Shown here piece by piece: positions 12,408 through 48,020 of a DNA stretch of 64,000 nucleotides; the stretch's first letter is position 1, and the number at the start of each line of letters is the position of its first letter. The notes below the pieces were generated by a model. The model was not told the DNA's origin. It saw only the letters and a program-made list of their open reading frames with translations, and searched no databases. The stretch is taken from positions 10,286 to 74,285 of the forward strand of contig JAVWAV010000003.1 of assembly GCA_036649855.1 (NCBI GenBank), read 5' to 3'. The position numbers and the translations under genes are program-made. This DNA comes from Bacilli bacterium. Lineage in GTDB: Bacteria > Bacillota_I > Bacilli_A > RFN20 > CAG-826.

Positions 12408-12422
12408 TTTCTACTTTCCTCC

Positions 12423-13493: not shown

Positions 13494-13523
13494 GAGTCTT
13501 TAACCTCCCTCTATTTAGTATTA

Positions 13524-14171: not shown

Positions 14172-14261
14172 ACTTATTGATTTTCTCTCCTAAATCCTGT
14201 ATTCATTAATTATTATACAGGAAGTTTCAAGAATTTTTTATGAGATGAAGAAAAATTTATT

Positions 14262-15230: not shown

Positions 15231-15261
15231 TAAATAAAGTCTCCTATCATAATTTATTATA

Positions 15262-15297
15262 CAAAAATTCCTCTCGTTTTTTACAGTGAGAGGAATT
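15262..15297 (-). terminator. rho-independent terminator
   Basis: 10-bp stem AATTCCTCTC/GAGAGGAATT followed by TTTT on the minus strand, then a TATAAT-like box. Confidence 0.6.
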
Positions 15298-15301
15298 TTG
15301 A

Positions 15302-16891
15302 TCATTTTAATATATTTATAACTTTTTGTTTTAATTCTTCGATATCTTTTGAATACACCTTTTCATGAACTTCTTGTTTTTTAAGGTCTACATTAGGATT
15401 TTCATGTCTTCCTGTTAAAGTTTTATCGATAAATCCATAATAATTGTATTTACTTCCCAATGTTACAACAGTTGTAAAATACCAAATTCTATCCCATGGT
15501 TTATAAAAATATGTTATATTTTCTCCATTCCAATTTCTTATCTTTGAAACAAGTTCGTCAACTGAATTTACTTTAATACTTTCATCATGTAATTCTTCTC
15601 TGGATTCTTTCATTTCTTCAAAATCTTGTTCTATTCCATTCTGAATTGAATTTAATGTTTCTTTTGAAAATACTGATTTGTCTTCTATTTCAACATAATA
15701 TTTATATCCATTGGTGTTATACTGATATTTATTTTTAACTAACCAATCTTCAAATTTTTCTGCATCATTGGTATTTCTAAATGTAAATCCTATATATCCC
15801 TGAGAATCTTTATTTTCAGAACCATTACAATTCTTTGCAACATTTCTAAGTTCTATTGGATCGAAGTCTTTAACTATTTTATTAGTAGTTTCTTTTATAA
15901 TTTCTCCATCGTATCCAAGTCCTCTATTATTTTTCAATAAATATTCTGCTCTTTCTTTTGTTAGATTATCAACTTTGAAATCACCTGTCGTTCCATGCAT
16001 TATATATGTCCAATTATTTTCTTCACTAGAATCTTTTATTGTTTGTTTTGTCTTAGATAGTAATTCTCTTAATGCTTGTATACCTTTTTCTGCTGTATCT
16101 GCTGTTCTAGAACCTATTCTAGTAAACTTGCCGTCTCTAAATACAATATTACATTCAATAATATACCAACCTTGTTTTACATTATCAAAATCTGGTTCGA
16201 AGTTTAGATTGATATGAATTTTAGCAAGTTCTGATTTTCCTGTTGAACTATTAATGTAAGTTGACTGTTTTAACGGAGTTTCGAATTCGACAAATACTGC
16301 TTTATCACTTCTATTTTTATCAATATTTCTCATTAATTCTGAACATTTAACAAGAATTTCATCTCTGCTTGCAAGATTGTCGTTTATGTCCTTATCATTT
16401 ACCACTATCTTCCAAACTTTCATCACTCCTAGATTTCCTCTATTATTTTTATAGATTTCATCTGAACCTGACATATCATAAAAATTATCTAAGTTATTAA
16501 CATAATTGTCTAATTGACTTCTACTTGAAAATTTCTTTGTTTCTAACAATGCTCCAGATTTATTATATATCTTTGCAACTAATACAGGTTCTAAATCTTT
16601 TACTTTTGTATCTATTATACCTGTTGAATCTGCTCCAAAATAATTTTCAAGAACACTCTTTAATTTATTCTTAGATCCTCTCAATACTAATTGATATTCA
16701 TTCCCTACTTTTTCTGCTACTGCACTTACTCCATATGCTCTTGCTTCTGCTATATCTTGTTTCAACATCTTATCGTCTTTCGAAGGATATCCTCCTAAAA
16801 TGTAGTGAGCATCTTTAACTTTGGTAACTGCATCAATAAACGATATTGAGTCAACAATAAATACTTTGTTTTTATAACTTACCTTAAACAT
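15302..16891 (-). CDS. head-module protein of unknown function carrying the N-terminal shared module
   Basis: The N-terminus MFKVSYKNKVFIVDSISFIDAVTKVKDA matches the module seen in five other ORFs. Confidence 0.6.
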   Translation of the reverse strand: MFKVSYKNKVFIVDSISFIDAVTKVKDAHYILGGYPSKDDKMLKQDIAEARAYGVSAVAEKVGNEYQLVLRGSKNKLKSVLENYFGADSTGIIDTKVKDLEPVLVAKIYNKSGALLETKKFSSRSQLDNYVNNLDNFYDMSGSDEIYKNNRGNLGVMKVWKIVVNDKDINDNLASRDEILVKCSELMRNIDKNRSDKAVFVEFETPLKQSTYINSSTGKSELAKIHINLNFEPDFDNVKQGWYIIECNIVFRDGKFTRIGSRTADTAEKGIQALRELLSKTKQTIKDSSEENNWTYIMHGTTGDFKVDNLTKERAEYLLKNNRGLGYDGEIIKETTNKIVKDFDPIELRNVAKNCNGSENKDSQGYIGFTFRNTNDAEKFEDWLVKNKYQYNTNGYKYYVEIEDKSVFSKETLNSIQNGIEQDFEEMKESREELHDESIKVNSVDELVSKIRNWNGENITYFYKPWDRIWYFTTVVTLGSKYNYYGFIDKTLTGRHENPNVDLKKQEVHEKVYSKDIEELKQKVINILK

Positions 16892-16895
16892 TAAT

Positions 16896-17495
16896 TTATT
16901 CTCCTATATCGAATATTTCTGGATGATCCTTTGCGAATTTCTTTGCTAATAAAACTGTTGCTGCACATAATTGAACGCATTCTACAAATGTGTTCTTTGT
17001 AGGAGTTTTTCCCTCAAATTCATCATTTATTTCATGAACAATTTCACCCAATTCTTCTGTTAAAACTGCTACCCATCTATCATAAGTATTATTTACTGTT
17101 TCTGGATGTGCTTTTGTAACGATTCTCTTTATTTCCTCAAGAATTGCATTAAAGATGTCAGAAACAGTAATAATATTATCATTATCTGAGTCAACTGCTT
17201 TTACATACTGTTTATCAAAAAATTGATTTAACTTTGTTTCTGCATCCTCTTGAGAAGTTGCAATTACATTGTATTTTTTACCGTCTTTTTTAATCTTAAA
17301 CTTACGATATTTTATTTCTTTAGTATTTTGTTTAGGTTCGTCTAAATCGCTCTCTAAAGGTAAATCTAATGGTTTTTCAACCACTTCTGCAACTTCTTCT
17401 ACAGGAGTTTCTGTTTCTTCTAATTTAGTTTCTGACACATCTTCTTGTGTGTCTTTTACATCTTCTTTGAATACCTTTCTATCAAATATATTCAT
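16896..17495 (-). CDS. acidic N-terminus + shared module + MazG-like (all-alpha NTP pyrophosphohydrolase-like) C-terminal domain
   Basis: Module KYRKFKIKKDGKKYNVIATSQEDAETKLNQF. The C-terminal LTEELGEIVHEINDE resembles the MazG EExxE motif; the second acidic motif is degenerate. Confidence 0.4.
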   Translation of the reverse strand: MNIFDRKVFKEDVKDTQEDVSETKLEETETPVEEVAEVVEKPLDLPLESDLDEPKQNTKEIKYRKFKIKKDGKKYNVIATSQEDAETKLNQFFDKQYVKAVDSDNDNIITVSDIFNAILEEIKRIVTKAHPETVNNTYDRWVAVLTEELGEIVHEINDEFEGKTPTKNTFVECVQLCAATVLLAKKFAKDHPEIFDIGE

Positions 17496-17511
17496 TATTA
17501 TTTATATCCTC

Positions 17512-18984
17512 CTATTTGATTATGTTTCTAACTTTATTTTCAGCATCTTGTTTAGATGTTGCCTTAACTATAAACTTTCTATCTCCTACTTTAACATTGT
17601 AGTTCTTAACAGTTTTTACTCTGTCATATTCAGAAATATTTAATGTTGAAGTTGATGTTATTGTTGCATCTGATAACATTTTTTCTAATTTTTCTAGTGG
17701 TAAGATAAGATTTGTTGTTCCGTTGTCAAGTGAAAGTGTAACATCGCCTTTCTTAATTTTAACAACAGTTAATTGTGCATTACCATACTTTTCTTCCCAT
17801 CTTAGTTTACTTCCTAAAACTACTTTCCCAATATCGTTTACAGAGTCTGAGTCTTTTATTGCTGAGTCTCTGACTGATATTCCCATTTCTTTAAGTGCTT
17901 TTCTTCCTGCTGAAGTAATATGGTCGTCATCAACATCGTATTTATCATACCAACTTGAGATTTCTCCTGAATTTGTTGTAATCCTTAATAAGTCCCATAT
18001 AAGTCTTGTCTCAAGAACTTTATATCCACCTTTGGATTTTAATTGACTCACATAATCATTAATTTTATCCTTCCCAAGTTTATTGAATTTTTCACTGACA
18101 ACTTTATTTAAATCTTCTGATTTATAGTCTCTTATCGCTGAGTCGTTAACATTCCAAATTATTTTTCCATTCTTGTAAATCAATTTAGGATTTGTAAAGT
18201 ATTCAAAAACACTGTCTTTAGCGTCTTTATCTGAAGTGACATTCATTTGTTTTACATCACCCTCTTCAGACTCTATCTCATAAGTACTGTCTTTAACATT
18301 AGATGGACTTGCTGTTGCTTTATCATCTACATATAAATAATTATTATGAGGATATTGATGGAAAGTAGGACCAATCTTTTGTCCTTCTTTTGCAAGTTCT
18401 TCAAGTGAACCAATAGTTACAGATGGAGTAATTAAAAATTTCCATTTTCCATTCTCTTGTCCTGCATATTGAAGTCCTTTCTCTCTTGCCTTTGCAATAA
18501 ATTCTTTAATTTGAGGATACTGTATTGTATCTTCTACTTTCTTTGAATCTGTTGTTGCTGTTGCCATTTTATTCACTCCTCCTAACATATCTAATCCTTT
18601 ATTTAATATGTTCTCTAAAATTCCATCATTCTCTTTAATATCACATACAGAGCATAAAGGATCATTTACTGTTGCATTGTTTGCAGGAATAACATCAGAA
18701 TCTTCTGTATTATTCTTTGCAAGTGTATTATCAGATTCTATTGCTCCTGTTGTCGTAGTTTTGAATATTGAATTTAATATATCAATATGTTCTATTTCAT
18801 CATTTCGTATTCTTTCGAGTTTAGATCTATCTTCTTCAGATAGATCTGCTCTCTTTAATGCTTTATCATAACCATCAATTGCTTCTATTTCATCTGAAAT
18901 TAAAAATCCAAGATCATCTCTCTTTTCAGTAATTTGAGGAGTTTCTTCCTTACCTGTTTCTAAAACTTTTTCGTCTTTTAACAT
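17512..18984 (-). CDS. head-module protein with N-terminal encapsulated-ferritin-like domain and C-terminal shared module
   Basis: aa 25-75, LISDEIEAIDGYDKAL..IRNDEIEHIDIL, resemble the EncFtn/rubrerythrin-like ExxEA...EExEH pattern. The C-terminus is YNVKVGDRKFIVKATSKQDAENKVRNIIK. Confidence 0.5.
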   Translation of the reverse strand: MLKDEKVLETGKEETPQITEKRDDLGFLISDEIEAIDGYDKALKRADLSEEDRSKLERIRNDEIEHIDILNSIFKTTTTGAIESDNTLAKNNTEDSDVIPANNATVNDPLCSVCDIKENDGILENILNKGLDMLGGVNKMATATTDSKKVEDTIQYPQIKEFIAKAREKGLQYAGQENGKWKFLITPSVTIGSLEELAKEGQKIGPTFHQYPHNNYLYVDDKATASPSNVKDSTYEIESEEGDVKQMNVTSDKDAKDSVFEYFTNPKLIYKNGKIIWNVNDSAIRDYKSEDLNKVVSEKFNKLGKDKINDYVSQLKSKGGYKVLETRLIWDLLRITTNSGEISSWYDKYDVDDDHITSAGRKALKEMGISVRDSAIKDSDSVNDIGKVVLGSKLRWEEKYGNAQLTVVKIKKGDVTLSLDNGTTNLILPLEKLEKMLSDATITSTSTLNISEYDRVKTVKNYNVKVGDRKFIVKATSKQDAENKVRNIIK

Positions 18985-18996
18985 TTAGTAATCTCC

Positions 18997-19569
18997 TTAT
19001 TTCTTTCCAAATTTAAATACTGGACTATTCTGAACATCGTTAACTATCTTTACATCTTCAATTTTTGCTGTATTTGTTTTCACTTGCTTTACTTTTGCAT
19101 GTTTCTTTACATTATGCTTTCTATTCTTTATATTTAGTATAACTTCAATAAATTCGAATATAAATGACAATGCTGTAAATAAAGAAATAACAAACATGTA
19201 TATAATTACTTTAGAACTTCCAATAGTTACAAGTTCTACTGGATTAAATACTGTAATAAATATATAAGTTATTGCAGCAATAATTAATGATACTGTCAAT
19301 AATCTAATTAATGATTTCATGATAGGATGTTTACACTCTGCATTTGTATATCTCTTATAATTATTTATTGCAAATATAAATGTTAATAGTGCAACAATCT
19401 CGACTGCTGCAGTTATTAGTATTCCCTTCAATCCTACAGTATTATAAAGATTTACTGCAGTTAATTCAAGTGAACCTCCAAATACTGCTAATACTTGTAT
19501 TCCTGTATACGCCAATAAAATTGCCATTGTTGAATACATTATTCCTCTGAATATATTAAGTTTTTTCAT
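18997..19569 (-). CDS. multi-pass membrane protein
   Basis: Four to five hydrophobic helices and a basic C-terminal tail. Confidence 0.6.
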   Translation of the reverse strand: MKKLNIFRGIMYSTMAILLAYTGIQVLAVFGGSLELTAVNLYNTVGLKGILITAAVEIVALLTFIFAINNYKRYTNAECKHPIMKSLIRLLTVSLIIAAITYIFITVFNPVELVTIGSSKVIIYMFVISLFTALSFIFEFIEVILNIKNRKHNVKKHAKVKQVKTNTAKIEDVKIVNDVQNSPVFKFGKK

Positions 19570-19585
19570 TTTCTAATTCCTCCTA

Positions 19586-20677
19586 TTAATTTTGTGTCCA
19601 TTGTGCATACAATGTTGTATCTGCTGTAACTGTTATTGTTTCTTCAGGATTATAATCTGTTCCTGTTCCATCAGCAAGAGTATTCCATTTACTAAATGTA
19701 TATCCCTCTATTAAAAATGCGTTTGTTGCAACTGATGTAGAATAACCACTTCCTAAAACTACGCTTGACATTGTTCCTGTTGCAGTTGTTCCTTGTGGAG
19801 CATTAGAATCATATGTCAATGTTCTAGCATCTACACTTGTTGCAGTTACTGCAATATTTGCATTAGCATTCGAGGTTATTTGAATTGTATCAGATTCTAA
19901 TCCCACATTTGTGGTATCATCACCTATTGTAACTGCATCTATACATTTTCCTTGAATTGCAGTTAGTATTACATTTACTGTTGCACCTTTAGAGATAACA
20001 TCAGTTCCTGGTGTTATTGTATTGCCTGCCCCATCTGTAAATCTCACTGTAACTGTTTCGTCTTCGTTAATATAAGAAATATTATACTTAGAAACATCAA
20101 CTGCTGTTATAGAAATGTCCTCTGTTGTGTGGTCTTCATACGCGATAGTTCTTGAAATTGTTGTTCCGATAGCATCTTCTGCAGCAACCCACCATGCTAT
20201 ATCTCCTGCTTCACCACCTAAATTAGTTGCTTCATCAACATCTGCTTGTGTCAATGGAGTTCCTTCCCATTTCATTCCAATAATTGATTTAAAATTTGTA
20301 TGAATAAGCATACATACATATTTTTTAGTTAATCCAGTTGCTGGAGATGTTAATGTATTCAATTTATCTAAATCTACATGGATAGTACAAGCATTACCTA
20401 CTTGTGTAACAGTCTTAATATTACTTTGGTTTGCTAAGAATTTCTCTAGTATTTCTGGTGTTATTGATGTGTCAGTATATTCTGTTGACTTTTCAAATAT
20501 GAAATCAGAATCTGTAAACTTTTGAAATTCTCTACCCATCCTTGCTAAAACTCTACAAAACTCTATAGGTGCTTTTATTGCAAATCCATCTGCATCTTCT
20601 TGTATTATTTTAAATTCACCACCCATTCTGTCTAATATTCTTGCATATTCTTTTGGAACTTTAATTAAATTATCCAT
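19586..20677 (-). CDS. virion surface/decoration-like protein with C-terminal Listeria-Bacteroides repeat (Flg_new) domain
   Basis: The C-terminus GYTFSKWNTLADGTGTDYNPEETITVTADTTLYAQW is the Flg_new signature. There is an N-terminal tandem repeat VPKEYARILDRMGGEF / APIEFCRVLARMGREF. Confidence 0.55.
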   Translation of the reverse strand: MDNLIKVPKEYARILDRMGGEFKIIQEDADGFAIKAPIEFCRVLARMGREFQKFTDSDFIFEKSTEYTDTSITPEILEKFLANQSNIKTVTQVGNACTIHVDLDKLNTLTSPATGLTKKYVCMLIHTNFKSIIGMKWEGTPLTQADVDEATNLGGEAGDIAWWVAAEDAIGTTISRTIAYEDHTTEDISITAVDVSKYNISYINEDETVTVRFTDGAGNTITPGTDVISKGATVNVILTAIQGKCIDAVTIGDDTTNVGLESDTIQITSNANANIAVTATSVDARTLTYDSNAPQGTTATGTMSSVVLGSGYSTSVATNAFLIEGYTFSKWNTLADGTGTDYNPEETITVTADTTLYAQWTQN

Positions 20678-20720
20678 CTATATTGTCCTCCTTATTAATT
20701 ATAACTTAATAATTTACATA

Positions 20721-22394
20721 TTATTTTCTTTTCTTCGAGTCTCTTAGTGCTGCTCTAATTATATTTTCTTTAATCTCGTTGTAATCGTCCTGTTTTATCT
20801 CTTTCTTTATAGGTTTGACAGTGGTTTCTATTTCTTCTGGTTGTTGTTCGAATTCCTCATTAAAGTCCTCTGTAAGACTGTTTTCGTCCTCTCCTGGACT
20901 CTCTGCTGCTAATTTATCTGCTTGTTTTGCTTTATCTTCATCTAACTTAGATATTTTAGTTCCAAATCCTGTTTTCTTTACTGCTGATTGAATTTCTTGT
21001 AATGCTGTTTCATGTGTTATTAATTCATTATCTAATAATGTTGATATATTATTTACTAAATTTGTTAAATAACTTTGTCTGTTTTCATCTGTATCATCAA
21101 GCATACTTACAAATTCGTAAGATAAATCTTGAGGAACTTCTAATCCACAACATTTAAATATTACAGGGAGTAATTTATCTAAAACAGGTCTAATTTCTTC
21201 ATCCTGCTTGCCTTGAATGTTATTGTCATATATTTTTAATTCAATAGGTTTATCTCCATTAAGTCCTGCTCTATTTGTTCCAAATAATATTACTTCTGGC
21301 ATTTCTGCTGCACCTGAAACAATATCCTTTTGACCTGTTAAGATATCTGACAATCCACTGAATGAATATTCTTGTTTTTCGTATTCATCTTGCTTATCCA
21401 TAAATACTAATTTATTTGAAGTTCTATAATTATTTAATGCTGCCATTTGTGCTGCAAACATTTGAGATGATTGAGGATTTCCAGCACTTAATCCACTCAT
21501 AGTATTTCGCATTCCGTCTAATTTTACAATTTCTAGTAATGCTTTATTTAATAAGGATGCTATTGCATTTTTAGTATTCTCATGATTCATTAAATCTTGC
21601 AAAACATGCTCTAATTCACTTATTCCCCAACCTTGTAATCTTTGTTCTGTAATTCTAGGAGATTTTCTATTTGTAAATCTCAATACTCTTGAATAATGAA
21701 CTTTTTGTGCTGAGTCTTCTGTTCCATCTATAAAAAATGAATAATATTTTGGTAATCCAAATTCTGCACTTCTATAGTCTGTTACAACTTCACTTGACCA
21801 ACTTAATCCATACCACCTATCTGTTGTTAAGAAATTAATCTTAGAACCTGCCTTTATGTTTTTAAGTTTCAATGGTTTAGACAAATCTTCTTCTCCGTCA
21901 TCAACCATTATCAAAGATGCTGCTCCACCGAATATTCTTGCTTGTTTTGTAGCATATATTAATCTACTCTTTAATCTGTTATATAATGTGTAAATCTTAG
22001 TTAAGTCTGCATCAACTAGCGAGTCACAATTAATATCTATACCATTTGACCACATATCTCTTGCTGGAATATCTACTATTTTTCTAAATACCCAACAACC
22101 ATTATATATCGCCATTAATTCATTTCTTCTAAATGTTATAAGATCATTATCGAAATATGCTCCATTAAGCATAACATTAGATACACCTGTTTGCATTTCT
22201 GGATTATTAAATGAGCCATCTTTAATTCTTCTTGATCCAAATCCTTCTTGAACTGCAGAATCAAATAATCTTGCTTTTTCTCCTATACTTTTAGAATCCT
22301 GAGAAGAACCTATAAATGCAGATACTCCAACATTATCGTTATTTGACTTAAAACTTCCATCTATAAATGATTGTAATGTTGTATCATAATTCAT
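20721..22394 (-). CDS. portal protein (DUF1073-like)
   Basis: 557 aa with an acidic C-terminus; the N-terminal region is typical of DUF1073 portals. Confidence 0.75.
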   Translation of the reverse strand: MNYDTTLQSFIDGSFKSNNDNVGVSAFIGSSQDSKSIGEKARLFDSAVQEGFGSRRIKDGSFNNPEMQTGVSNVMLNGAYFDNDLITFRRNELMAIYNGCWVFRKIVDIPARDMWSNGIDINCDSLVDADLTKIYTLYNRLKSRLIYATKQARIFGGAASLIMVDDGEEDLSKPLKLKNIKAGSKINFLTTDRWYGLSWSSEVVTDYRSAEFGLPKYYSFFIDGTEDSAQKVHYSRVLRFTNRKSPRITEQRLQGWGISELEHVLQDLMNHENTKNAIASLLNKALLEIVKLDGMRNTMSGLSAGNPQSSQMFAAQMAALNNYRTSNKLVFMDKQDEYEKQEYSFSGLSDILTGQKDIVSGAAEMPEVILFGTNRAGLNGDKPIELKIYDNNIQGKQDEEIRPVLDKLLPVIFKCCGLEVPQDLSYEFVSMLDDTDENRQSYLTNLVNNISTLLDNELITHETALQEIQSAVKKTGFGTKISKLDEDKAKQADKLAAESPGEDENSLTEDFNEEFEQQPEEIETTVKPIKKEIKQDDYNEIKENIIRAALRDSKKRK

Positions 22395-25909: not shown

Positions 25910-28900
25910 TTAATACCATTGTTGTGAATATCCTTTAACATAAGTTACAACACATCTTAAACAACCTGCCATACCTTCGTCTAAGGTATTTGTTTGGTCT
26001 ACACCTCTCTCACGACTCTGTTCTGTAATTCTTAATTTAGCAATATCATTTATTGTTTGCTTACATTCTTTAGATACTTTTATTTTTTTCTTAAATAATC
26101 CTGTCTTCATTATATTTATCGATACATCTCTATCTCTTTCATCATATTTTATAACATTGTAAACATTTGTTAATAACATTGATAATCTATTTTGTGGAGA
26201 AGTATCTAGTATTGTGTTTCCTGGTAAAACTTCATTTCTGCTGAATTCTTCGAATGCCTGTATTCCTCTGAATACTCTTTCTCCTACTACAATAAATTCA
26301 TCTGTAAAATTATCTTGCATTATTTCTGTTACTTTTATTATCTCTCCAGATACTGTTGCTCCATAAATTAAGAAATTAGTTTTATTTATTTCTTCACTGC
26401 TTATAATATTTTGAGAACTGAATGCACCTGTATATACTCCGAGTTGTCTCTGAGTGAAATGATATATAACTAATTGTGCAAAAGCATCTGTAATATCATC
26501 ATGAGCAATTAATGGAAATTTCTTTAATTGCTGAATTAAATACATAACTTTATCTGTTCTAGCAAATCTAACTAATCCTTTTTCCATATATACTGATGCT
26601 AATTCTAGTCTCTGCATTTTACTTCGTGTTCCTGGATTAAATGCTACAAGTCCTGCAACATCCTTCGCTAAGTCCTGTATTAATGCTGATCCATTCGCTT
26701 TGTCTTCTACTACTTGAATTATTGAAGGATCTATAATTTGCATTCTTGTAAATAATTCTTTTTCAGCAACATATCCCAAGTGTTCTTCAAATGCGTCTGT
26801 TATTACTAATTCATTATCTTTACTATATGCTTCTGTAAATCCATGATAATCTGATGTTTCTTTATCTTTTACAGGACAGTCATGAGATGCATAATGGAAC
26901 TCTGCTAATGCTGTAAATTCTTCTAATTCTTTATCTTCGATATAATGTATCATATTTTCTTTGATAACATTTAATCTACTCTCTCCTGGATTTTGGTTAT
27001 ACTGTGTTTCAAAATCTTCAGATCCAATTTCCATCTTTAACTGAGTATAATCTCCAAATCTTTCTGCCCATAGTAAATCACCTTTCTTAATTTGCTTAAC
27101 CATTCCAGAACATGGATAAATAAATGTTTGATCATGACTCGCTACTGCTTGTATTTCAGTGTGACTGTAAATTAGTCGAAGTCCTTTATCCTCTGCAATT
27201 AAATCAGAAATATCACCATTTCCAATTCTTTGCATAATATGCCAAATTACACCTGTTGTCTTATTATTAAGACGAGATGGCATTGTTGTTTTGTAATAAT
27301 CTCTTGCATGTAATAATACTGCTCCATCCATTCTTGCATCTGCTACTGATATCAAATCATCGTTAATAATAATATCAGAACCAAATCCTGTAAACTTATC
27401 CATAGCAACTGAGTATGTCTTACCACCATTTCTTAATTCAAGACAATCTGCTGTATTCTTAGATAATCCAAGATTAATCTCATTTCCAAAATAATATTTA
27501 TATTTTTCGCTATTGAATAATTTCTGTTTCTTTATAATCATTTCTCCAGACAAGTTCTTACTGTGAGAAACAGATGTAACTGTAACTGGAGTATTTATAA
27601 TAGTCCATGATGGTCCTAAAATATTCATTATTGTTGAATTATGTGTCTGAATTAATGTTCTACCTGCTAGATACATTCCTCCCTCTACAGTTATACAGTT
27701 TCCTTCTTCTGGAATATCTAATTTATTTATTGATGTGATAGATATTCTTCTCTGTTTTGAAAAAATATTTAATTGTTTTCTTGGTATTCTACATGGTATT
27801 TCAAATGTAGGATTAAACCCAATATAATAACCGTCCTTTTTTGATATAATACCGTCCGCTTTTTGAATAGTTATTGAGGTCTTCCAACCAAATGATGCAA
27901 TCAGTGTTAAGATATCATCTTTTAATCTCTCGGAAGTAGTTATGAAGAAGTACCTGTGCTCATCTTTAATTAGACTGCCATCTGTGTCTATAAGTCCTGC
28001 CAACAAATCAAGTCTTTGTTCTACAGATGCTGTTAAGTACTCTTGAGGTATATGTTTTGTATCTTTATCTTTTGGAAAGCATAGACTTAATTTTTGTAAG
28101 TCTAGTCTCATAATTTTATCGAACTCATATTGAATACTTTTTCCCCACCCGCAGTCGTTTATCCATTTATTATGTATTCTATAATGTTTCTCTACTTCAT
28201 TTATTACTTCCATATCATCTATTCCAGCAGTGATTAATTGATGATTTGTGTTCCCATCTCCCAGCCATGCTCCTAGAACATATGGATTTACAGGTAAGAC
28301 TTTATCTTCCCCTAAAACTGCTGTTCTATTCTCCAAATGAAATCTATAACCATTTCCTCGAACATTTCCCATTTTTGGACTTATTCTTAATTTATTAACA
28401 AGATACTCTGTTTCTACTGTTTTTACTTTATTTGCAAAATTATCATGAACTTTCCACAAATGCTTTGAATTGCACTTAATCGTCTCGCCATTGCTGAATA
28501 CGACCTCTAAATCAGCAACATCTTTAGGATGAACTTTTATAACTTTCACAAATCTTCCGCCATCAGAAATTACCTCATCTCCTACAACTAAATCTCCATG
28601 ATTCTTCCACCCATTTCTTGTCAGAATTGGTGTATTATTTGCTAGGAGTTTCATATGCCGTGGTGCGATGTTCAAGTCGTGGTTACGAGTATGTGTTCCA
28701 TCTGGCAATAAATGATCTCTTACATCACAGTGTCCACCTGATTCTTTTTGTATCTTTTCATATTCTTCATCACTTATCCATTCTCCCCAAATATATTGAG
28801 GTAGAAAATGTTTAATAGAATATTGATAACATTCACATAAATATTGTATCAACCAACAATCACTAAATGGACTGGTCTCATAAGAATCCCACATCTCTTT

Positions 28901-28969
28901 TACAAATTCATATAGATTCTTTTTAATTAACCATGTCTTTAATAATTTAATATTTACTATTGTTGACAT
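25910..28969 (-). CDS. terminase large subunit interrupted by an intein
   Basis: Exteins carry ..IAPRHMK|..|STIMN (Walker A region), IIINDDLIS (Walker B) and C-terminal HDDITDAF (nuclease). The 337-aa insert has intein and LAGLIDADG blocks. Confidence 0.85.
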   Translation of the reverse strand: MSTIVNIKLLKTWLIKKNLYEFVKEMWDSYETSPFSDCWLIQYLCECYQYSIKHFLPQYIWGEWISDEEYEKIQKESGGHCDVRDHLLPDGTHTRNHDLNIAPRHMKLLANNTPILTRNGWKNHGDLVVGDEVISDGGRFVKVIKVHPKDVADLEVVFSNGETIKCNSKHLWKVHDNFANKVKTVETEYLVNKLRISPKMGNVRGNGYRFHLENRTAVLGEDKVLPVNPYVLGAWLGDGNTNHQLITAGIDDMEVINEVEKHYRIHNKWINDCGWGKSIQYEFDKIMRLDLQKLSLCFPKDKDTKHIPQEYLTASVEQRLDLLAGLIDTDGSLIKDEHRYFFITTSERLKDDILTLIASFGWKTSITIQKADGIISKKDGYYIGFNPTFEIPCRIPRKQLNIFSKQRRISITSINKLDIPEEGNCITVEGGMYLAGRTLIQTHNSTIMNILGPSWTIINTPVTVTSVSHSKNLSGEMIIKKQKLFNSEKYKYYFGNEINLGLSKNTADCLELRNGGKTYSVAMDKFTGFGSDIIINDDLISVADARMDGAVLLHARDYYKTTMPSRLNNKTTGVIWHIMQRIGNGDISDLIAEDKGLRLIYSHTEIQAVASHDQTFIYPCSGMVKQIKKGDLLWAERFGDYTQLKMEIGSEDFETQYNQNPGESRLNVIKENMIHYIEDKELEEFTALAEFHYASHDCPVKDKETSDYHGFTEAYSKDNELVITDAFEEHLGYVAEKELFTRMQIIDPSIIQVVEDKANGSALIQDLAKDVAGLVAFNPGTRSKMQRLELASVYMEKGLVRFARTDKVMYLIQQLKKFPLIAHDDITDAFAQLVIYHFTQRQLGVYTGAFSSQNIISSEEINKTNFLIYGATVSGEIIKVTEIMQDNFTDEFIVVGERVFRGIQAFEEFSRNEVLPGNTILDTSPQNRLSMLLTNVYNVIKYDERDRDVSINIMKTGLFKKKIKVSKECKQTINDIAKLRITEQSRERGVDQTNTLDEGMAGCLRCVVTYVKGYSQQWY
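27638..28648 (-). mobile_element. intein with LAGLIDADG homing endonuclease domain (class-3-like WCT pattern)
   Basis: Two LAGLIDADG motifs are present: LGAWLGDGN and LLAGLIDTDGS. The element ends ..LIQTHN|S. There is no Cys/Ser at position 1, but SKHLW, NCITV and QTHN are present. The N-junction is approximate. Confidence 0.75.
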
Positions 28970-30802: not shown

Positions 30803-30847
30803 GTTTTCTTCTCCTTACAAAATAAAATTCCCACAATGTGAGAATAT

Positions 30848-31204
30848 TGGTGGACATGACGAGAGTCGAACTCGTGTCCATATCATGAATTTATTAGAAT
30901 ATTTTGCTACTATAATCTTTTAGACCGTCCATTTATGATGTTTGAGTGGACATTTCTTATTTACCTCGTCTCATCATAATTCGTTTTTAACTCTTGAATT
31001 ATAGAGTCTCTGATTTCTCAGAATAGTGCTTTATTTTAATCCTCAAATACTAAGCAGCACATTGACTGTATTGTTTTGGAGCAAGAGCATTAATTATTCT
31101 TGCAAATATATTTTGTTTTGCATTTATATTTAGTTGTAGTCTATTCCTACTGTCATATAGAATTCTAATAATTTCAATTGAAATGTCGATACCATTTCAT
31201 GCCC
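30848..31204 (-). ncRNA. ssrA: transfer-messenger RNA (tmRNA)
   Basis: The 5' GGGCATG pairs with the 3' CATGTCC-A-CCA, including G3:U70. GGTATCGAC matches the tmRNA GGAUUCGAC box. The 3' end reads GGAC-ACGAG-TTCGACT-CTCGT. A ~13-bp P2-like helix joins GAAATTATTAGAAT and ATTCTAATAAATTC. An internal frame ends ..GCT GCT TAG. Confidence 0.75.
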
Positions 31205-31371: not shown

Positions 31372-31446
31372 TGGTGGAACGATAGAGATTCGAACTCTAA
31401 CTTCTTGGATGCAAACCAAGTGTGCTACCATTGACACCATCACCCC
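31372..31446 (-). tRNA. tRNA-Ala (anticodon UGC)
   Basis: Full cloverleaf with encoded CCA. Anticodon loop TTTGCAT, T-loop TTCGAAT. The acceptor stem has the G3:U70 Ala identity pair plus G4:U69 and U5:G68. Confidence 0.85.
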
Positions 31447-31680
31447 AAAATGCAAAGATGGTAGGAATTTAACCTCCTCAACCACTCCGAAAGTGCATCT
31501 TTGCATCCTGTTTCTTCTTGAAACATAGTCACCTAAGTTATATATCTTAGTATTCAAGTCCTGCGAACTAATCTCCACTGCCTGTTCCGTGGACGAACTG
31601 CTTACATTTTTCGACTCATGAGGTCGCTATTCAATAGAATTAAGCAGTCAAGTTGTTTTAAATCTACTTGCCAAAGACCA

Positions 31681-31755
31681 TGGTTGCGAGAGATGGATTT
31701 GAACCATCGATCTCTAGGTTATGAACCTAGCGAGATTCCACTTCTCTATCTCGCG
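31681..31755 (-). tRNA. tRNA-Met (anticodon CAU), initiator-like
   Basis: Full cloverleaf with encoded CCA. Anticodon loop TTCATAA. The C1:A72 mismatch is typical of bacterial initiator tRNA. Confidence 0.85.
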
Positions 31756-31997: not shown

Positions 31998-32510
31998 ATA
32001 TTGCGGGAGATACATTTTACCAAGTATCCCAAGTCAATTATAACATCATATCTTCAACCACGCAGAATTATTGATCAAATAATTCTATTTTATCGAGAAG
32101 AATCTTTCGTCTTCTATGTTCGAGACTGACTGGTATAAATATCAGAATTATTATTCTGTCTGTTTAAAGAATGCAGATTTGTCCCAAACAACTAATAACC
32201 AAAGTCTTATATTCTCTCACGAGAAATCAACTGCATTAGGATAGCAACTATAGGATTATTCTTCCGTTGAGATAGAGTTCCTATTATCCCGACTCGTTAT
32301 TATGTTTTTATGAAATTATAATTAAGTTCTACCACTATCTTGTTTGTTCTCATCAAAACTCAACAGATATTTCAATCTCCAAGATAATGTGCCTTTCTGC
32401 CGTCAAGCAGGATTCAGCCACCGCATTTGTTTATAAGTTCTTTCGTTCTTATGTGTTAGTATAATGTATTTACTTGCTTCCTCAATTAATATTACTAATT
32501 TTGATTAATA

Positions 32511-33389
32511 TTATTGTCTTATAATGTGTATCGCATCCACTAATAGAGTGTGTATTGGTTTTGATAAATCAGTTGAAATATACTTCTTATTGTCATCTGG
32601 AAATACAGTAAATGATATATGCTCCTTAGATAAAACTGCTCCCAAGAAATTTGCTCCACCACTTATACCTACTGGATATCCTGCTTTATTTAATTTCTGT
32701 GTCATTGCTATAGCATCTTCATCTGTTACTTCTATTATACAATCCACTAATTTTGAATTATAGTTCTTTGGAACATCATTACTATTTAATCCTTGTATTT
32801 TATGATTACCTTTTGGAACACCATTTGTTAATAAAAGTGTTGAATATGGATCTATTGCAGTTATTACTGCACTATATTTTTCTTTTAATCTTGTTCCCAC
32901 TCCTGTGAGTGTTCCACCACTACCTACACCTGATGCAAATCCAAATATTTTATCATCAATTGAATTTTCATCAATAAATTTACATATTTCTTCTGCTGTT
33001 CCATAATAATGTGCAGCAACATTTGATTTATTTTCAAATTGTTTTGTTAAAAATGCATTATGTTCTCTTGCATATTCTTCTGATATCTTAAATGCTTCAT
33101 TAAAATCTTCTACAAGAATTAAATTCGCTCCAAGTAATTCCAATAGTTTTATTCTTTCTGAACTCATGTTCTTTGGCATGAATATTGTAACTTTATGTCC
33201 AAAATGTTTCCCAACTGCTGCAAGAGATAATCCCATATTCCCACTAGTCACTTCAACTATCTCTTGTTCTTTTAATAACTTATTAGATAAAAATGCATTT
33301 GCGATCATTCTATATGCAACTCTGTCTTTTATACTTCCTGATAAATTATACCATTCGCATTTTGAATACACTACACAATCTCTGTTCAA
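32511..33389 (-). CDS. cysK: cysteine synthase / O-acetylserine sulfhydrylase-like PLP enzyme (main frame; N-terminus lies in another frame)
   Basis: SGSIKDR (PLP lysine), TSGNMGLSLA and GVGSGGTLTG motifs. Confidence 0.8.
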   Translation of the reverse strand: MNRDCVVYSKCEWYNLSGSIKDRVAYRMIANAFLSNKLLKEQEIVEVTSGNMGLSLAAVGKHFGHKVTIFMPKNMSSERIKLLELLGANLILVEDFNEAFKISEEYAREHNAFLTKQFENKSNVAAHYYGTAEEICKFIDENSIDDKIFGFASGVGSGGTLTGVGTRLKEKYSAVITAIDPYSTLLLTNGVPKGNHKIQGLNSNDVPKNYNSKLVDCIIEVTDEDAIAMTQKLNKAGYPVGISGGANFLGAVLSKEHISFTVFPDDNKKYISTDLSKPIHTLLVDAIHIIRQ

Positions 33390-35836: not shown

Positions 35837-36271
35837 TTATCTCAATTTATTTCTTTTAACCTTATTTTTATTCTCATACATTCTTTCATCTGCTTTCTTC
35901 ATAGCACTTGAAATCTCTTCTTTAGAGTCTTTTACTGCAAATCCATATGCAAAATTCTTTTGACTCTCACAATATTCTTTTAATCTCTCATATTTATTCT
36001 TCTTTGAACAAATTATTAAAAATTCGTCTCCTCCAAGTCTAATTGTAATTCCAAATTCTTTTAATATGTTTGCAACATCTACAATTCTCTTATCTCCTTC
36101 AAGATGTCCATAAGTATCATTTATTTTCTTCAAATTATTAATATCTACTAAGGTTATAATACAATATTTATTTCTAAATGTTTCTTTTATCTCATAATCT
36201 AAGTAATTTCTATTATAGCAATCTGTGAGACTGTCATGGTATGCTATATATTTGTATTTCTTCCTTTCCAA
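35837..36271 (-). CDS. stand-alone GGDEF-domain protein (diguanylate cyclase-like)
   Basis: YHDSLTDCYNRNYL..VDINNLKKINDTYGHLEGDK..RLGGDEFLI.. The GGDEF motif is intact, there is no sensory domain, and no RxxD I-site precedes GGDEF. Confidence 0.8.
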   Translation of the reverse strand: MERKKYKYIAYHDSLTDCYNRNYLDYEIKETFRNKYCIITLVDINNLKKINDTYGHLEGDKRIVDVANILKEFGITIRLGGDEFLIICSKKNKYERLKEYCESQKNFAYGFAVKDSKEEISSAMKKADERMYENKNKVKRNKLR

Positions 36272-36599: not shown

Positions 36600-37185
36600 A
36601 CTGTTTTAGAATAAATTTTTTATAATCCTCAAAGTCAGTAAATAATTTATGTTCTCCACTTACAACATCATAACATTGCATATTATGTATTAATCCATAA
36701 TTATTTGCAGTTATTAAGATATAAGTTTCTTTGCCTTCTCTTTCAGACATTATAATATTGAAAATTGATTTTATTTGTTCTATTCCCTCAATGTCTAATC
36801 CACTGTCTAGAGCATCTAATAAAATAAATATCTTTTCCAAGTCTTTATTCTGTTCTACAAATGCACCCATCTTTTTAACAATCTTTCCAAAGTTGTAAAA
36901 GATTTGTTCTCCCTCACTATGAAATGATGTTGCTGCAAGTGATGCAAAATCTCCTGTAAATCCATAATGTTCTTTTGCTGCAGATCCTCCATCTCCATAA
37001 TTGTCATATTTAATAAATGGTATAGTATTATCTTTACAATAAGTTTCTATTTGTCTCAATAGTGTTGTTTTACCACTTCCATTATGTCCTATAATAACTG
37101 TTGCACCATTTGATAAATCAATAAAACTACTTTTATATAAATATTTTCTTTTATCATATGGATCTCTTATTATTTTAATCTTCAT
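36577..37185 (-). CDS. small ABC/AAA-type ATPase
   Basis: Walker A GHNGSGKTT, signature-like HSEGEQ, Walker B IFILLDALDSGLD. Confidence 0.65.
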   Translation of the reverse strand: MKIKIIRDPYDKRKYLYKSSFIDLSNGATVIIGHNGSGKTTLLRQIETYCKDNTIPFIKYDNYGDGGSAAKEHYGFTGDFASLAATSFHSEGEQIFYNFGKIVKKMGAFVEQNKDLEKIFILLDALDSGLDIEGIEQIKSIFNIIMSEREGKETYILITANNYGLIHNMQCYDVVSGEHKLFTDFEDYKKFILKQYEEKRNE

Positions 37186-37886
37186 CTTGATTTCTCCTTA
37201 TTCTCAAATATATTTCCGTCCATTCTTACTACTGAATTTGCATCAATAGACTTTGTAACAAATGCATTTCCTCCAATTACTGTATTGTCTCCAATAACTG
37301 TTTCTCCACCAAGAATTGTTGCATTAGCATATATTATAACATTATTTCCAATGGTTGGATGTCTCTTTGTTTGTTCTCTATTTGTAACAGACTTTGCTCC
37401 TAGTGTACCTTGATATATCTTTACACTGTCTCCGATAATTGTTGTTTCTCCAATAACTATTCCTGTTCCATGATCTATCATACAGTTCTTGCCTATTTTC
37501 GCTCCTGGATTTATATCTATTCCTGTTTCTCTATGTATCATCTCAGACATTATTCTCGCAATTTGTTTTGCTCCATTATTATAAAATAGATGTGCTACTC
37601 TGTGAACTGCTAATGCTCGAACTCCTGGATAACACATTCTTATTGTTTGTTCTGAGTCTGCAGCAGGATCTCCATTGAATGTTGCAGTTACATCTGAGTC
37701 AATAAGTTGTCTAACTGTATAATCATCAAATAACTCCTTATTTAATTTCTCATTACCTGATTGATATAAGAAAGTTTTAATAGTGGCTAGGTATATATAT
37801 TTATTATACAAGAAATAATCTAATATATCTCTTGTAAATGTCTCTGTTTCTTTAACTAAATCATATGTCATCTTCGTCATCTCCAT
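37182..37886 (-). CDS. cysE: serine O-acetyltransferase
   Basis: Hexapeptide-repeat core GIDINPGAKIGKNCMIDHGTGIVIGETTIIGDSVKIYQG. Confidence 0.8.
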   Translation of the reverse strand: MEMTKMTYDLVKETETFTRDILDYFLYNKYIYLATIKTFLYQSGNEKLNKELFDDYTVRQLIDSDVTATFNGDPAADSEQTIRMCYPGVRALAVHRVAHLFYNNGAKQIARIMSEMIHRETGIDINPGAKIGKNCMIDHGTGIVIGETTIIGDSVKIYQGTLGAKSVTNREQTKRHPTIGNNVIIYANATILGGETVIGDNTVIGGNAFVTKSIDANSVVRMDGNIFENKEKSR

Positions 37887-44488: not shown

Positions 44489-45070
44489 CTACTTATCCTC
44501 CTTTGTTGATTTGATTACAATATTATTGTTTATATATAGATCTTTTTCTGAACATAAGATTATTGCTTCTTTTATTCTCTCTTCTGGAGATTTTGATTTA
44601 TTCTTTTCTAGAACTCCGATTGCTATCTTTTCTCCGCATCCTAAAACTAAATAATCTTCTATTGGCAATACACATAAATCATTCTCTATTTTATATGCTT
44701 TATCTTTATATGCAATTATAAATCTACTTAACATATAATTCTCATCATTTCCATTTGCGTCTTTTAGAATTCTCTTGTTTGCTAATAAGATTGAGTAAAT
44801 CTTCCCTGATAAATTTGTTACTACATATTCATAGTCTACTGAATTCTTTAATTGGAATATCTCTTCTATGATGTTATTTTGACATTGAACTAATTGTCCA
44901 TCTCTTAAATGTCCTACAACTCCCATTATTCCTTGTTTGCAATTCTTTATTTCCCATATCTTACAAACAGAGTTATTATCACAGTTCTCTTTTAGTCCAT
45001 TACTTGTGATTTGACTATCACATCCAATTACTATTCTATCATTGTCTTTTATTGCTACAATTAAACTCAA
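44489..45070 (-). CDS. Ntn-hydrolase / HslV-proteasome-beta-like protein
   Basis: MSLIVAIKDNDRIVIGCDSQITSN aligns by eye with HslV TTIVAVRRNGKVVIAGDGQVT. A Ser replaces the nucleophile Thr after Met1. Confidence 0.45.
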   Translation of the reverse strand: MSLIVAIKDNDRIVIGCDSQITSNGLKENCDNNSVCKIWEIKNCKQGIMGVVGHLRDGQLVQCQNNIIEEIFQLKNSVDYEYVVTNLSGKIYSILLANKRILKDANGNDENYMLSRFIIAYKDKAYKIENDLCVLPIEDYLVLGCGEKIAIGVLEKNKSKSPEERIKEAIILCSEKDLYINNNIVIKSTKEDK

Positions 45071-45821: not shown

Positions 45822-46742
45822 TTAATACATTGATATTTCATCTTTTTCCGATCTTATTCTGTCTATCCATGTTGGAAATCTCATTGAATATTTTCCATCT
45901 GCATCTTGAGATATTTCAAAATACTTTATCTCAACTATTTTCCCTAATAGTAGTTCTTTATTATTCCAATATAATTCTCTCTGAGTATCTGTAAATCCAG
46001 AACCTACATCACATTTATATAAGTTTCCTCTATGTTCAAATTCTACTGTTATTCCACCTAATGTGTTTGTAAATCTACCTGTTCCAGAATACATATCTAA
46101 TACTTTTACATCTGCCGTCTTGAATTTTTTAACCTTCAACAAGTTCTTTGTTCTCTTACATTCGTAAGGTGAGTCTGCTATGTTTATCATAACTCCCTCT
46201 CCACCTACTGATGTTATTTTTTCCAAATAATATTCTATTTGTGATTTATCTGAACCTTGATATAGAACCTCAACTTCTTTTATCCATCTTAATTTTGGAC
46301 ACATTCCTTTTATTGAAAGATGTAACATAGACTTTCTACTCGTTGTGTCTGCTATAGATGTTCCTTTCCAGAATTCTTCTGCCTTTACCATGTCAAATAT
46401 ATGGAATATTACTCCTGTTTTTATTCCGTCTCTTCTTACTGCACTTGTAGTTGCTCTAAATAATTCTTCAGTGTCTTCAATATTTGCATCTGCTATTAAT
46501 TCTCCATCATAGAAATATCCATGAGGAAGTCTCTTCAACTCATTTTCAATGTCTAACATATCCTTATATAATTGACCTTGACGAGTATAAAGTATTACAT
46601 TTCCATCTTCTTCAACTAATGCACACATTCTACAATTATGTTTTAGAATTCCATTACAGAAAAAGTTATGATTACCTTCAACTGTTAATTCATAAGTATG
46701 TTCTTTCTGTATTTGTTTCATTCTTTTAATTCTTTCAAACAT
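45822..46742 (-). CDS. ATP-dependent DNA ligase C-terminal fragment preceded by a 36-aa C-intein
   Basis: MFERIKRMKQIQKEHTYELTVEGNHNFFCNGILKHN|CRMCALV.. Ligase motifs FYDGEL, GGEGVMI and LLKVKK follow. Confidence 0.8.
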   Translation of the reverse strand: MFERIKRMKQIQKEHTYELTVEGNHNFFCNGILKHNCRMCALVEEDGNVILYTRQGQLYKDMLDIENELKRLPHGYFYDGELIADANIEDTEELFRATTSAVRRDGIKTGVIFHIFDMVKAEEFWKGTSIADTTSRKSMLHLSIKGMCPKLRWIKEVEVLYQGSDKSQIEYYLEKITSVGGEGVMINIADSPYECKRTKNLLKVKKFKTADVKVLDMYSGTGRFTNTLGGITVEFEHRGNLYKCDVGSGFTDTQRELYWNNKELLLGKIVEIKYFEISQDADGKYSMRFPTWIDRIRSEKDEISMY

Positions 46743-48020
46743 TTATTTAATATCTCCTTATATTCTCCATTTAATATTTCTCTTTCCCAAATATTTATAA
46801 ATTTATATCCAAAACTCTTTATAAAACTTTCTCTTGCTGAGTCCCTTTCCCAAATTTGTTCAGCAGTCATTTTACCCTCGTATGTTGAAATAATATCTGA
46901 CCTTGAATATTCTCTTGGATCTGCATGACAATATCCACCATATATCTCAATCACTAATTTATATTTAGGCAATGTTATATCAGGTATTGCAAATTTAACT
47001 CTCCCATCTGCTGTTTTTATTCTAAATGGACTTCCACATTCGTCAATCACCTCTTCACCTATAGATCTTAAATAATTAGATACAGTATCATGAATTGTGC
47101 TATGACTGCATCCAGGTTTCAATCTACAACTTCCCCAAGCATTTCCGTATTTCTTTATTTTTGTAAGTTGTATTTTCTGTATTATTCCAGGTATATGATC
47201 TGGATTTTCAACTCCATATCGTTCTAAAAATGTTTGTTTTGTTTTAGGAGATTGAAAAGTATTCTTACAACCATACTTATCTATACAAGACTTCTCATAA
47301 TTAGTTCTTGTGAACTCAGTTTTTGCTGCCTCAGAATTATTTCTTAATTTAATATTTCTTTTCTTTAATTCACTTATAAAATAACATAATCTATTTATAT
47401 TTAATGATTTCTCTAAATTATATATTGACTCACCATTTTTATATCTTTTACAGAATTCATTAAGTAAAGTTTCATTTGGTTTATCTAATTCATAGCATTT
47501 TTTACAAATACCTAGATGACCAATATAACTATCTTTATATTTAAATCTTATACCACAACTTGAGATGTATTCAAATTTACTGTATTCTTTTTTTATAAAT
47601 TCAAATTCTTCTTCTGTAATGATATATCTATTTGATTTATTCTTTGTTAAATTAAAATTCAAATCTTTCAATATTCTATAAAGACATGTCTCTGATACAT
47701 TTAATTTAGTTGCAACTTCCTTCAATTTCATCTACAAACACCTCATCTTCAGAGGTTAAATATCTTACTTCTTTCCAACCATTTCTTGTCATTACTAAGT
47801 CGTTTCCTGTTATCTTTAATTTTCTTCCTGTAACTGTTTCAATTTCATACCACTCAGCATTTTTAGACAGTCCCCTCATAAAATTCTCAACTTTCTTAAA
47901 TTCTATCCGTCCAGTTTTCTCGTTATAAGATTTTACCTCTATATTAGAATAACTGTTTTCTAACGAGGATATTGTCTTTAATCCTATATTTGTTTCAACT
48001 AAAGTATCACCTGATACACA
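46635..48020 (-). mobile_element. split intein (IntN 104 aa, IntC 36 aa) with intervening free-standing homing endonuclease gene
   Basis: IntN starts CVSGDTLVETN right after ligase motif I (STKLDG). IntC ends ILKHN|C. The HEG ORF overlaps both flanking ORFs by about 25 nt. Confidence 0.75.
46718..47731 (-). CDS. free-standing homing endonuclease, Vsr/PD-(D/E)XK-like C-terminal domain with N-terminal HTH
   Basis: N-terminal KLNVSETCLYRILKDL HTH. The C-terminal FAIPDITLPKYKLVIEIYGGYCHADPR...KSFGYKFINIWE resembles Vsr/DUF559-type nucleases. Confidence 0.6.
   Translation of the reverse strand: MKLKEVATKLNVSETCLYRILKDLNFNLTKNKSNRYIITEEEFEFIKKEYSKFEYISSCGIRFKYKDSYIGHLGICKKCYELDKPNETLLNEFCKRYKNGESIYNLEKSLNINRLCYFISELKKRNIKLRNNSEAAKTEFTRTNYEKSCIDKYGCKNTFQSPKTKQTFLERYGVENPDHIPGIIQKIQLTKIKKYGNAWGSCRLKPGCSHSTIHDTVSNYLRSIGEEVIDECGSPFRIKTADGRVKFAIPDITLPKYKLVIEIYGGYCHADPREYSRSDIISTYEGKMTAEQIWERDSARESFIKSFGYKFINIWEREILNGEYKEILNKCLKELKE

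Follow-up and report, generated by a model that had tools for sequence, protein, structure and literature searches.

Genes for transfer-messenger RNA (tmRNA; ssrA) were found in 402 of 18,146 phage genomes in a census that yielded 133 unique sequences (PMC9004378). They have been reported from huge phages (PMC7162821), from eight named mycobacteriophages, Bxz1 and Catera among them, and from Bacillus phage G (PMC4131195). Mycobacteriophage DS6A has an ssrA that consists of the tRNA-like domain (TLD) only; a molecule resembling it is a strong inhibitor of tmRNA and may work by titrating SmpB (PMC4131195). We analyzed a stretch of 64,000 nucleotides (GenBank assembly GCA_036649855.1, contig JAVWAV010000003.1, positions 10,286 to 74,285; hereafter the window), which contains a one-piece tmRNA gene on the minus strand at 30848..31204. 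The tmRNA is a new and very divergent example of the phage tmRNAs already known. Particular to it are its extreme divergence, a 23-residue tag with a cysteine, the mid-sized genome and a clear recent gain. A preliminary description of this DNA had stated that tmRNA genes are reported in only a few large phages; after the census this statement is outdated, and the genome of the window phage (~83-110 kb) is not a huge one.

When ARAGORN was applied with default settings, a tmRNA was called at exactly 30848-31204 (minus strand; 357 nt with an encoded CCA end; coding part at RNA positions 84-155), the same coordinates as those proposed in the preliminary description. RNA positions are converted into window coordinates as window = 31205 - position. 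The local region was also searched with the Rfam covariance model RF00023 using E-value reporting, and the alignment spans the model from 1 to 374, end to end, with 43.7 bits and an E-value of 6.4e-16. The covariance-model match that the preliminary description expected of a tmRNA is therefore present over the full length, with a score that is formally borderline (see below). The fold was compared with dinucleotide shuffles (z = -3.2), and none of 100 shuffles was equally stable. P1, P2 and the T-arm are all present in the ensemble centroid, and forcing the canonical P1 and T-arm costs 0.6 kcal/mol over the minimum free energy (MFE) structure. P1, P2, the pseudoknot PK1, the T-arm, the resume context and Ala-Ala-stop all have the expected order and spacing, and the GC content of the gene (31%) is in line with the composition of the phage. 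Permuted two-piece tmRNA models (RF04321 and the alpha/beta/cyano families) gave chance-level scores of 15 bits only (E ~1). As the gene is colinear and no such model matched above chance, a permuted two-piece form was ruled out, and the window tmRNA is one-piece, unlike the permuted two-piece marine forms (pelagiphage, Melnitz).

The 5' half of the TLD (31178..31204, minus; ARAGORN 5' domain, RNA positions 1-27) contains the GGGCAUG acceptor strand with the G3 of G3:U70 and the D-loop analogue GGUAUCGAC at positions 12-20 (GGnnUCGAC box, no D-stem). The 3' half (30848..30886, minus; ARAGORN 3' domain, positions 319-357) consists of the T-arm (positions 330-346, (A)CGAG-UUCGACU-CUCG(U)), CAUGUCC and ACCA. 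In the acceptor stem P1, GGGCAUG (1-7) pairs with CAUGUCC (347-353) at 7/7 positions including G3:U351, and ACCA is encoded next to it. The Rfam posterior is near 1 across both halves of the TLD. The P2 helix is formed by GAAAUUAUUAGAAU (positions 30-43; 31162..31175, minus) and AUUCUAAUAAAUUC (positions 305-318; 30887..30900, minus), with 13 of the 14 positions paired, and is seen in the unconstrained MFE structure as well as in the centroid. The acceptor stem with G3:U70, the conserved box, the T-arm, the CCA end and the P2-like helix were thus all found where the preliminary description had placed them.

PK1 (31136..31161, minus; RNA positions 44-69; stems 44-48/61-65 and 55-58/66-69) is predicted from the sequence as the best-scoring H-type pseudoknot in this zone; it follows P2 without a gap, and 14 nt separate its end from the resume codon. 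A candidate downstream pseudoknot (30926..30980, minus; positions 225-279) would be composed of one stem of 8 bp (225-232/265-272), which is present in the MFE structure, and one of 6 bp (253-258/274-279), which was read by eye from the letters; the z-score of the hairpin is -1.3. The body downstream of the tag also holds two simple predicted hairpins.

The tag reading frame (31050..31121, minus) extends from the resume codon GCA at 31119-31121 (RNA position 84) to the UAG stop at 31050-31052 (positions 153-155) and encodes AKQNIFARIINALAPKQYSQCAA*, 23 codons ending in QCAA-UAG according to ARAGORN. The resume codon is preceded by UAUAAAU, in which U at -5 and A at -4 fit the conserved context, and the Rfam posterior is high over this region. 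The frame closes with GCU GCU UAG, and a second in-frame GCA is located at 31101-31103. The preliminary description gave the same coordinates for the stop and both GCA codons and derived two candidate tags from them; the longer one agrees with ARAGORN and the Rfam alignment, both of which choose the upstream GCA, and the shorter one was not supported. Ala-Ala-stop closes the tag in a single frame, the one that both programs picked. In a manual reading of the other two frames, which pass through a helix-5-like hairpin, the tags finish with the non-hydrophobic residues QE or NN, and no G-initial resume codon opens a tag of useful length. Since these frames lack a plausible resume codon, the longer of the two candidate tags is considered to be the right one.

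ARAGORN reported 'Tag not identified', and the tag is absent from its catalogue. The antepenultimate residue, usually Leu, Val or Met, is Cys here (the comparison tags end in LMAA, LAA and MAA). Judged from the predicted translation, the Cys-Ala-Ala ending is unusual, as had been pointed out before. The terminal Ala-Ala, the main determinant for ClpX, is retained, and the N-terminal half of the tag is basic and amphipathic. Compared with bacterial one-piece tmRNAs (RF00023), the window RNA is alike in size, G3:U70, T-arm, GGnnUCGAC box, long P2, PK1, GCA resume codon with U(-5)A(-4), Ala-Ala-stop and CCA. It differs from them in being phage-encoded, in its score (43.7 versus 120-165 bits), in a helix 5/PK2-4 region that is not confidently alignable and in its 23-residue, uncatalogued tag with an antepenultimate Cys.

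The preliminary description had called the gene phage-encoded, and the window is indeed of a myovirus-type phage with terminase, portal, sheath, baseplate and major head genes (~30% GC, all genes on the minus strand). The non-structural half encodes a sigma factor, clamp-loader subunits (one with an intein), RecA, RNase H, an intein-interrupted ligase and GIY-YIG and HNH endonucleases; from this gene content the phage looks lytic. Along the minus strand, the order of the RNA island is a CysK-like gene, a structured RNA of ~424 nt, tRNA-Met(CAU), tRNA-Ala(UGC), the tmRNA and a terminator-like hairpin, the tmRNA being the last gene of the island, downstream of both tRNAs. The tRNA-Ala gene (31372..31446, minus; ARAGORN; 54.9 bits with the Rfam tRNA model) has a G3:U70 pair and lies 167 nt upstream of the tmRNA. 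The tRNA-Met gene (31681..31755, minus; ARAGORN; 64.3 bits) shows an initiator-like C1/A72 mismatch, as bacterial initiator tRNAs typically do. An initiator tRNA, a tRNA-Ala and a tmRNA may thus be supplied together by the island. In a terminator scan, the hairpin with its U-run (30827..30845, minus; -6.9 kcal/mol, z = -2.25) was located 3 nt past the CCA end. A sigma-70 promoter scan showed no excess of promoters and none upstream of the tmRNA, which says little because the phage encodes its own sigma factor. Like the tmRNAs of Bxz1, phage G and the huge phages, the window gene is a complete ssrA beside tRNA genes in a phage that looks non-integrating, and all of them are proposed to keep ribosome rescue going or to manipulate it (PMC4131195, PMC7162821, PMC9004378).

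Two side observations concern this island. The acceptor pair 2/71 of the tRNA-Ala (window 31445 and 31376) varies by strain: G2 is changed to A in L001 (A:C mismatch) and C71 to U in L027 (G:U). In an independent assembly (L026, SRR17156247), the contig ends at window position 30847, 1 nt beyond the 3' end of the tmRNA; this may mark a branch of the assembly graph where another sequence shares the tmRNA 3' end, e.g. a host tmRNA or one of the type found on the metagenomic contig L019 (see below).

When the tmRNA region was compared with 50,697 GenBank phage records (megablast and blastn), no match was obtained. An exact 32-mer search of the tmRNA in IMG/VR also gave no match, and an IMG/VR search with flanking proteins (CysK-like protein, a 199-aa open reading frame (ORF) product, the large terminase TerL and MazF) returned no relatives. 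By exact-protein lookups the same phage was found in three independent datasets (SRR25820365/6, SRR25904991 and JGI 3300076254) with 99.4-99.8% identity; these lookups gave nothing beyond strains of 99.4-100% identity, each of which has the same tmRNA. The tmRNA is identical in 3/3 datasets, the invariance covering the whole gene and not the TLD alone, and the flanking non-coding DNA carries 6 + 3 substitutions.

TerL homologs delimit a clade of phages of ~80-110 kb. Nine TerL relatives were fetched, with syntenic regions at 65-80% TerL identity in L004, L005, L009, L010/11, L012 and L021. No tmRNA was found in the fetched relatives with ARAGORN, Rfam, blastn or nhmmer, and most of them have one or two tRNAs at the syntenic place. 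ARAGORN with relaxed thresholds gave only implausible 'tmRNAp' calls in the gaps of the relatives, which were treated as noise. As the tmRNA is absent from relatives with 65-80% TerL identity, we consider that it was gained recently, in this lineage only, within a variable RNA island. Its presence in one lineage and absence from all sampled relatives provide natural comparisons of phages with and without the gene. One of these relatives, L005, has a tRNA-Ile with the rare UAU anticodon (6414-6489).

Homologs were also searched by pattern scans with the T-loop and acceptor stem fixed and the T-stem free, in a genome collection, IMG/VR and JGI metagenomes. The genome collection gave three tmRNAs from Clostridia/Christensenella metagenome-assembled genomes and one from Chloroflexota with the same acceptor stem, but these are GC-rich with unrelated bodies and were rejected as donors; the IMG/VR match was one permuted tmRNA, which is unrelated. 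Among the JGI metagenomes, L019 (a 245-kb contig) and L020 were matched, and in these the tmRNA is situated within a tRNA array of 16-18 genes. L019/L020 and the window RNA share the unusual acceptor stem GGGCAUG/CAUGUCC, a near-identical T-arm and a partly similar P2 sequence, and within the TLD 33/35 positions are identical at the 3' end and 19/22 at the 5' end. In contrast, the body and the tag are unrelated (the L019/L020 tag is AEDYFDEPLAA), and only two tRNAs accompany the window gene. A literature search of the sample accessions placed one related dataset, in the rumen: L020 is from JGI 3300033463, a cow/sheep rumen dataset (PMC12149495), and L022, a relative of the window phage, is from the same dataset. 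Relatives of the window phage thus live in the same habitat as the tRNA-array element, and the two may also have a host group or a pool of phage genes in common.

On balance we think it likely that the gene is a genuine, structurally intact and strongly divergent one-piece tmRNA, which was recently acquired into the tRNA island by one lineage of lytic-looking myoviruses of ~30% GC and works through host alanyl-tRNA synthetase (AlaRS), SmpB and EF-Tu. The analysis shows what the gene is, how it is built, where it lies and in which phages it occurs; from this we infer its expression, charging, SmpB use, tagging and a benefit to the phage, along the following lines. Transcription would cover the tmRNA together with tRNA-Met and tRNA-Ala, or immediately after them, and end at the tmRNA's own terminator; host RNase P and 3' processing would then mature the RNA. 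Host AlaRS would charge it with alanine via G3:U70. It would then bind host SmpB and EF-Tu and enter ribosomes stalled on truncated mRNAs, where translation would resume at GCA (31119-31121), append AKQNIFARIINALAPKQYSQCAA and stop at UAG. The likely benefit would be ribosome recycling during infection while mRNA cleavage yields many non-stop messages. Such cleavage could be caused by a phage endoribonuclease of the MazF type, and tmRNA reportedly counteracts MazF-type mRNA cleavage. The window encodes a MazF/PemK-type toxin of the mRNA endoribonuclease family (50555-51022, minus; 155 aa; Pfam E-value 2.5e-19; PHROG 'MazF-like growth inhibitor', E-value 7e-23), for which no relatives were found in IMG/VR. 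This toxin is a possible source of non-stop mRNAs for the tmRNA to resolve.

Several results weigh against an intact and working tmRNA. With 43.7 bits, the match to RF00023 stays 3.3 bits short of the curated gathering cut-off of the model (47), and at gathering thresholds the two adjoining tRNAs were the sole Rfam output for the region. A standard Rfam annotation run thus misses this gene, and the standard gathering threshold misses AT-rich phage tmRNAs that are found by ARAGORN. The shortfall reflects the extreme AT-richness and divergence of the body, and no domain is missing. When scored on the same model, bacterial tmRNAs reach 120-165 bits and the other phage-type tmRNAs (L019/L020) 105-115 bits, so the window RNA is far lower than both. 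The RF00023 posterior falls to 0.2-0.5 over the central region with helix 5 and PK2-4. The helix-5-like hairpin here (positions 102-107/119-124) has UAA triplets in its loop, out of frame, and an alternative helix-5 candidate, GUGCU/AGCAC (positions 145-149/175-179), encloses the real stop. The tmRNA copies found are 100% identical, and the only covariation seen is a single compensatory pair of the T-stem (A:U here, C:G in L019/L020). That the tmRNA would carry no substitution at all has a Poisson probability of 0.04-0.08, so the case for constraint is a weak one, and the sampled relatives manage without the gene. Finally, no SmpB was found in the scanned ORFs of the window and ~2 kb beyond each edge, a search that leaves ~15 kb of the 83-kb source contig outside; some huge phages, which also differ from the window phage (~83-110 kb) in genome size, co-encode SmpB.

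The low score invites the question of whether a tRNA-like or merely AT-rich sequence has met the ARAGORN heuristics by chance, all the more so as relaxed ARAGORN gives spurious tmRNA calls in neighbouring sequence. This is hardly credible, since two detectors agree (a default-threshold ARAGORN call and a full-length covariance-model alignment with an E-value of 6e-16) and since P1, P2, PK1, the T-arm, the resume context and Ala-Ala-stop are rightly ordered and spaced. It is likewise highly improbable that the gene is host ssrA DNA left by a temperate phage, as an attP-type fragment or through imprecise excision, with no role in the phage. The ssrA gene is a common integration site of phages, and attP copies hold only its 3' end. 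Fragments of ssrA do occur in prophages and have been discussed as such (PMC9004378). The window gene, however, is of full length with its 5' half, and the scanned ORFs of the window and ~2 kb beyond its edges yielded no integrase (the same ~15 kb of the 83-kb contig lying outside the search); for these reasons the integration remnant was rejected. Further arguments are the lytic appearance of the genome, which encodes a sigma factor, a clamp loader, RecA, a ligase and homing endonucleases of its own, and the GC content of the gene (31%), which fits the phage; in addition, bacterial tmRNAs that share the acceptor stem have bodies unrelated to that of the window gene.

Two further explanations accept a phage function of the RNA but a different one. 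If the RNA acts as a decoy, only its TLD matters, by titrating host SmpB (perhaps AlaRS and EF-Tu too) and blocking host trans-translation, and the tag frame is a decaying relic. The TLD is the sole part with a near-perfect Rfam posterior and the sole part common to other tmRNAs, the RNA body is very divergent (43.7 bits), and the TLD-only ssrA of DS6A, with the inhibition of tmRNA by a similar molecule, is a precedent (PMC4131195); both genes are phage-borne with the TLD as the best-conserved part. Unlike DS6A ssrA, which has little beyond the TLD, the window gene keeps P2, PK1, the full tag frame and a normal length. All 357 nt, the 13/14-bp P2, a well-placed PK1 and a canonical resume context are maintained, a frame of 23 codons leading to Ala-Ala-stop is kept in AT-rich sequence, and the entire gene, not the TLD alone, is invariant among strains. 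We therefore regard a decoy as unlikely. A working tmRNA whose private tag (…QCAA) alters the fate of tagged proteins, evading host ClpXP or feeding a phage HslV-like peptidase in a takeover module with the MazF-like RNase, appears decidedly unlikely. Its attraction is that the tag is uncatalogued, with Cys in place of the usual Leu, Val or Met, and that the phage encodes the MazF-like toxin and a proteasome/HslV-family peptidase (44489-45070, minus; PHROG phrog_1040, E-value 3e-12; Pfam Proteasome, E-value 7e-6), unusual cargo beside a degradation-tagging RNA. The link between these genes is co-residence only, at 13-20 kb from the tmRNA; moreover, the terminal Ala-Ala is kept and no HslU-like unfoldase or adaptor was identified. 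In its fullest form, the idea is a private branch of trans-translation in which the MazF-like RNase cuts host mRNAs, the divergent tmRNA rescues the ribosomes and the …QCAA tag is ignored by host ClpXP or fed to the HslV-like peptidase, as one module for takeover and amino-acid recycling; this we rate as very unlikely. The suggestion of the preliminary description that a divergent tag could redirect host trans-translation is a speculation. The presence of the MazF-like RNase and the HslV-like peptidase offers a concrete hypothesis of why a phage wants its own ribosome-rescue RNA, a question that is open in the literature.

A large structured RNA is encoded ~800 nt upstream of the tmRNA (32002-32425, minus, possibly extending to 31944; ~424-445 nt, ORF-free). 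It is conserved in all six clade members at 67-69% identity, with homologs in L004 (6799-7249), L005 (6619-7079), L009 (6672-7131), L010 (6938-7389) and L012 (7152-7594). In the RNAalifold prediction, 128 pairs make up 21 helices, and the covariation term is -20.6 kcal/mol. Standard pairs are formed by 95.4% of the cells, compared with 41-45% when the 3' partners were slid by 1-3 columns, and 69 pairs are changed on both sides, compared with 4-17 in the slid controls; for both measures 0/500 shuffles reached the observed value. The window and L010 copies gave no Rfam match at E-values up to 5-10, and the RNA is therefore not ROOL or GOLLD as modelled in Rfam. Two motif scans of IMG/VR yielded 48 loci, among which the only true member was L029, from the same contig as L004. 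Among the loci compared, the large RNA was seen only in this clade, and we propose it as a candidate new class of large phage non-coding RNA. This large, unclassified, tRNA-adjacent RNA is probably a more novel feature of the locus than the tmRNA, and it may matter more.

A second conserved non-coding block (~250 nt) is located downstream of the large RNA in L004, L005, L009 and L010. The window keeps ~100 nt of it (31573-31678; L004 7362-7466), between tRNA-Met and tRNA-Ala, which suggests that the segment with tRNA-Ala and the tmRNA replaced part of this block.

Further cargo of the phage includes CysE, CysK and GGDEF proteins in addition to the peptidase and the toxin described above. The CysE-like serine O-acetyltransferase (37182-37886, minus; E-value 7e-49) and the CysK-like cysteine synthase (32511-33389, minus; E-value 1e-66) form an auxiliary pair for cysteine biosynthesis. 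In strain L001 the CysK-like gene has a deletion of ~481 bp (window ~32650-33130), and a second, weak PALP match is present at 62237-63106. The GGDEF (diguanylate cyclase) protein is a stand-alone one of 144 aa (35837-36271, minus).

Inteins and related insertions are found in several genes. The clamp-loader subunit at 55067-57130 (minus) has an intein at residues ~108-450, and the ATP-dependent DNA ligase (45822-48581, minus) reads as three successive ORFs, apparently split by a Hint/intein element. The large terminase (25910-28969, minus) has 1019 aa, compared with ~683 aa in relatives, owing to a LAGLIDADG-type insertion of ~336 aa. The terminase of strain L001 (L001 8807-12961; 99.4% identical) has an extra intein of ~366 aa, giving 1384 aa, and the terminases of other relatives bear different inteins; the terminase is thus an intein hot spot that is polymorphic even among strains. 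On contig L007, the terminase region is duplicated as a mirror image (12028-22034), which is probably an assembly artefact.

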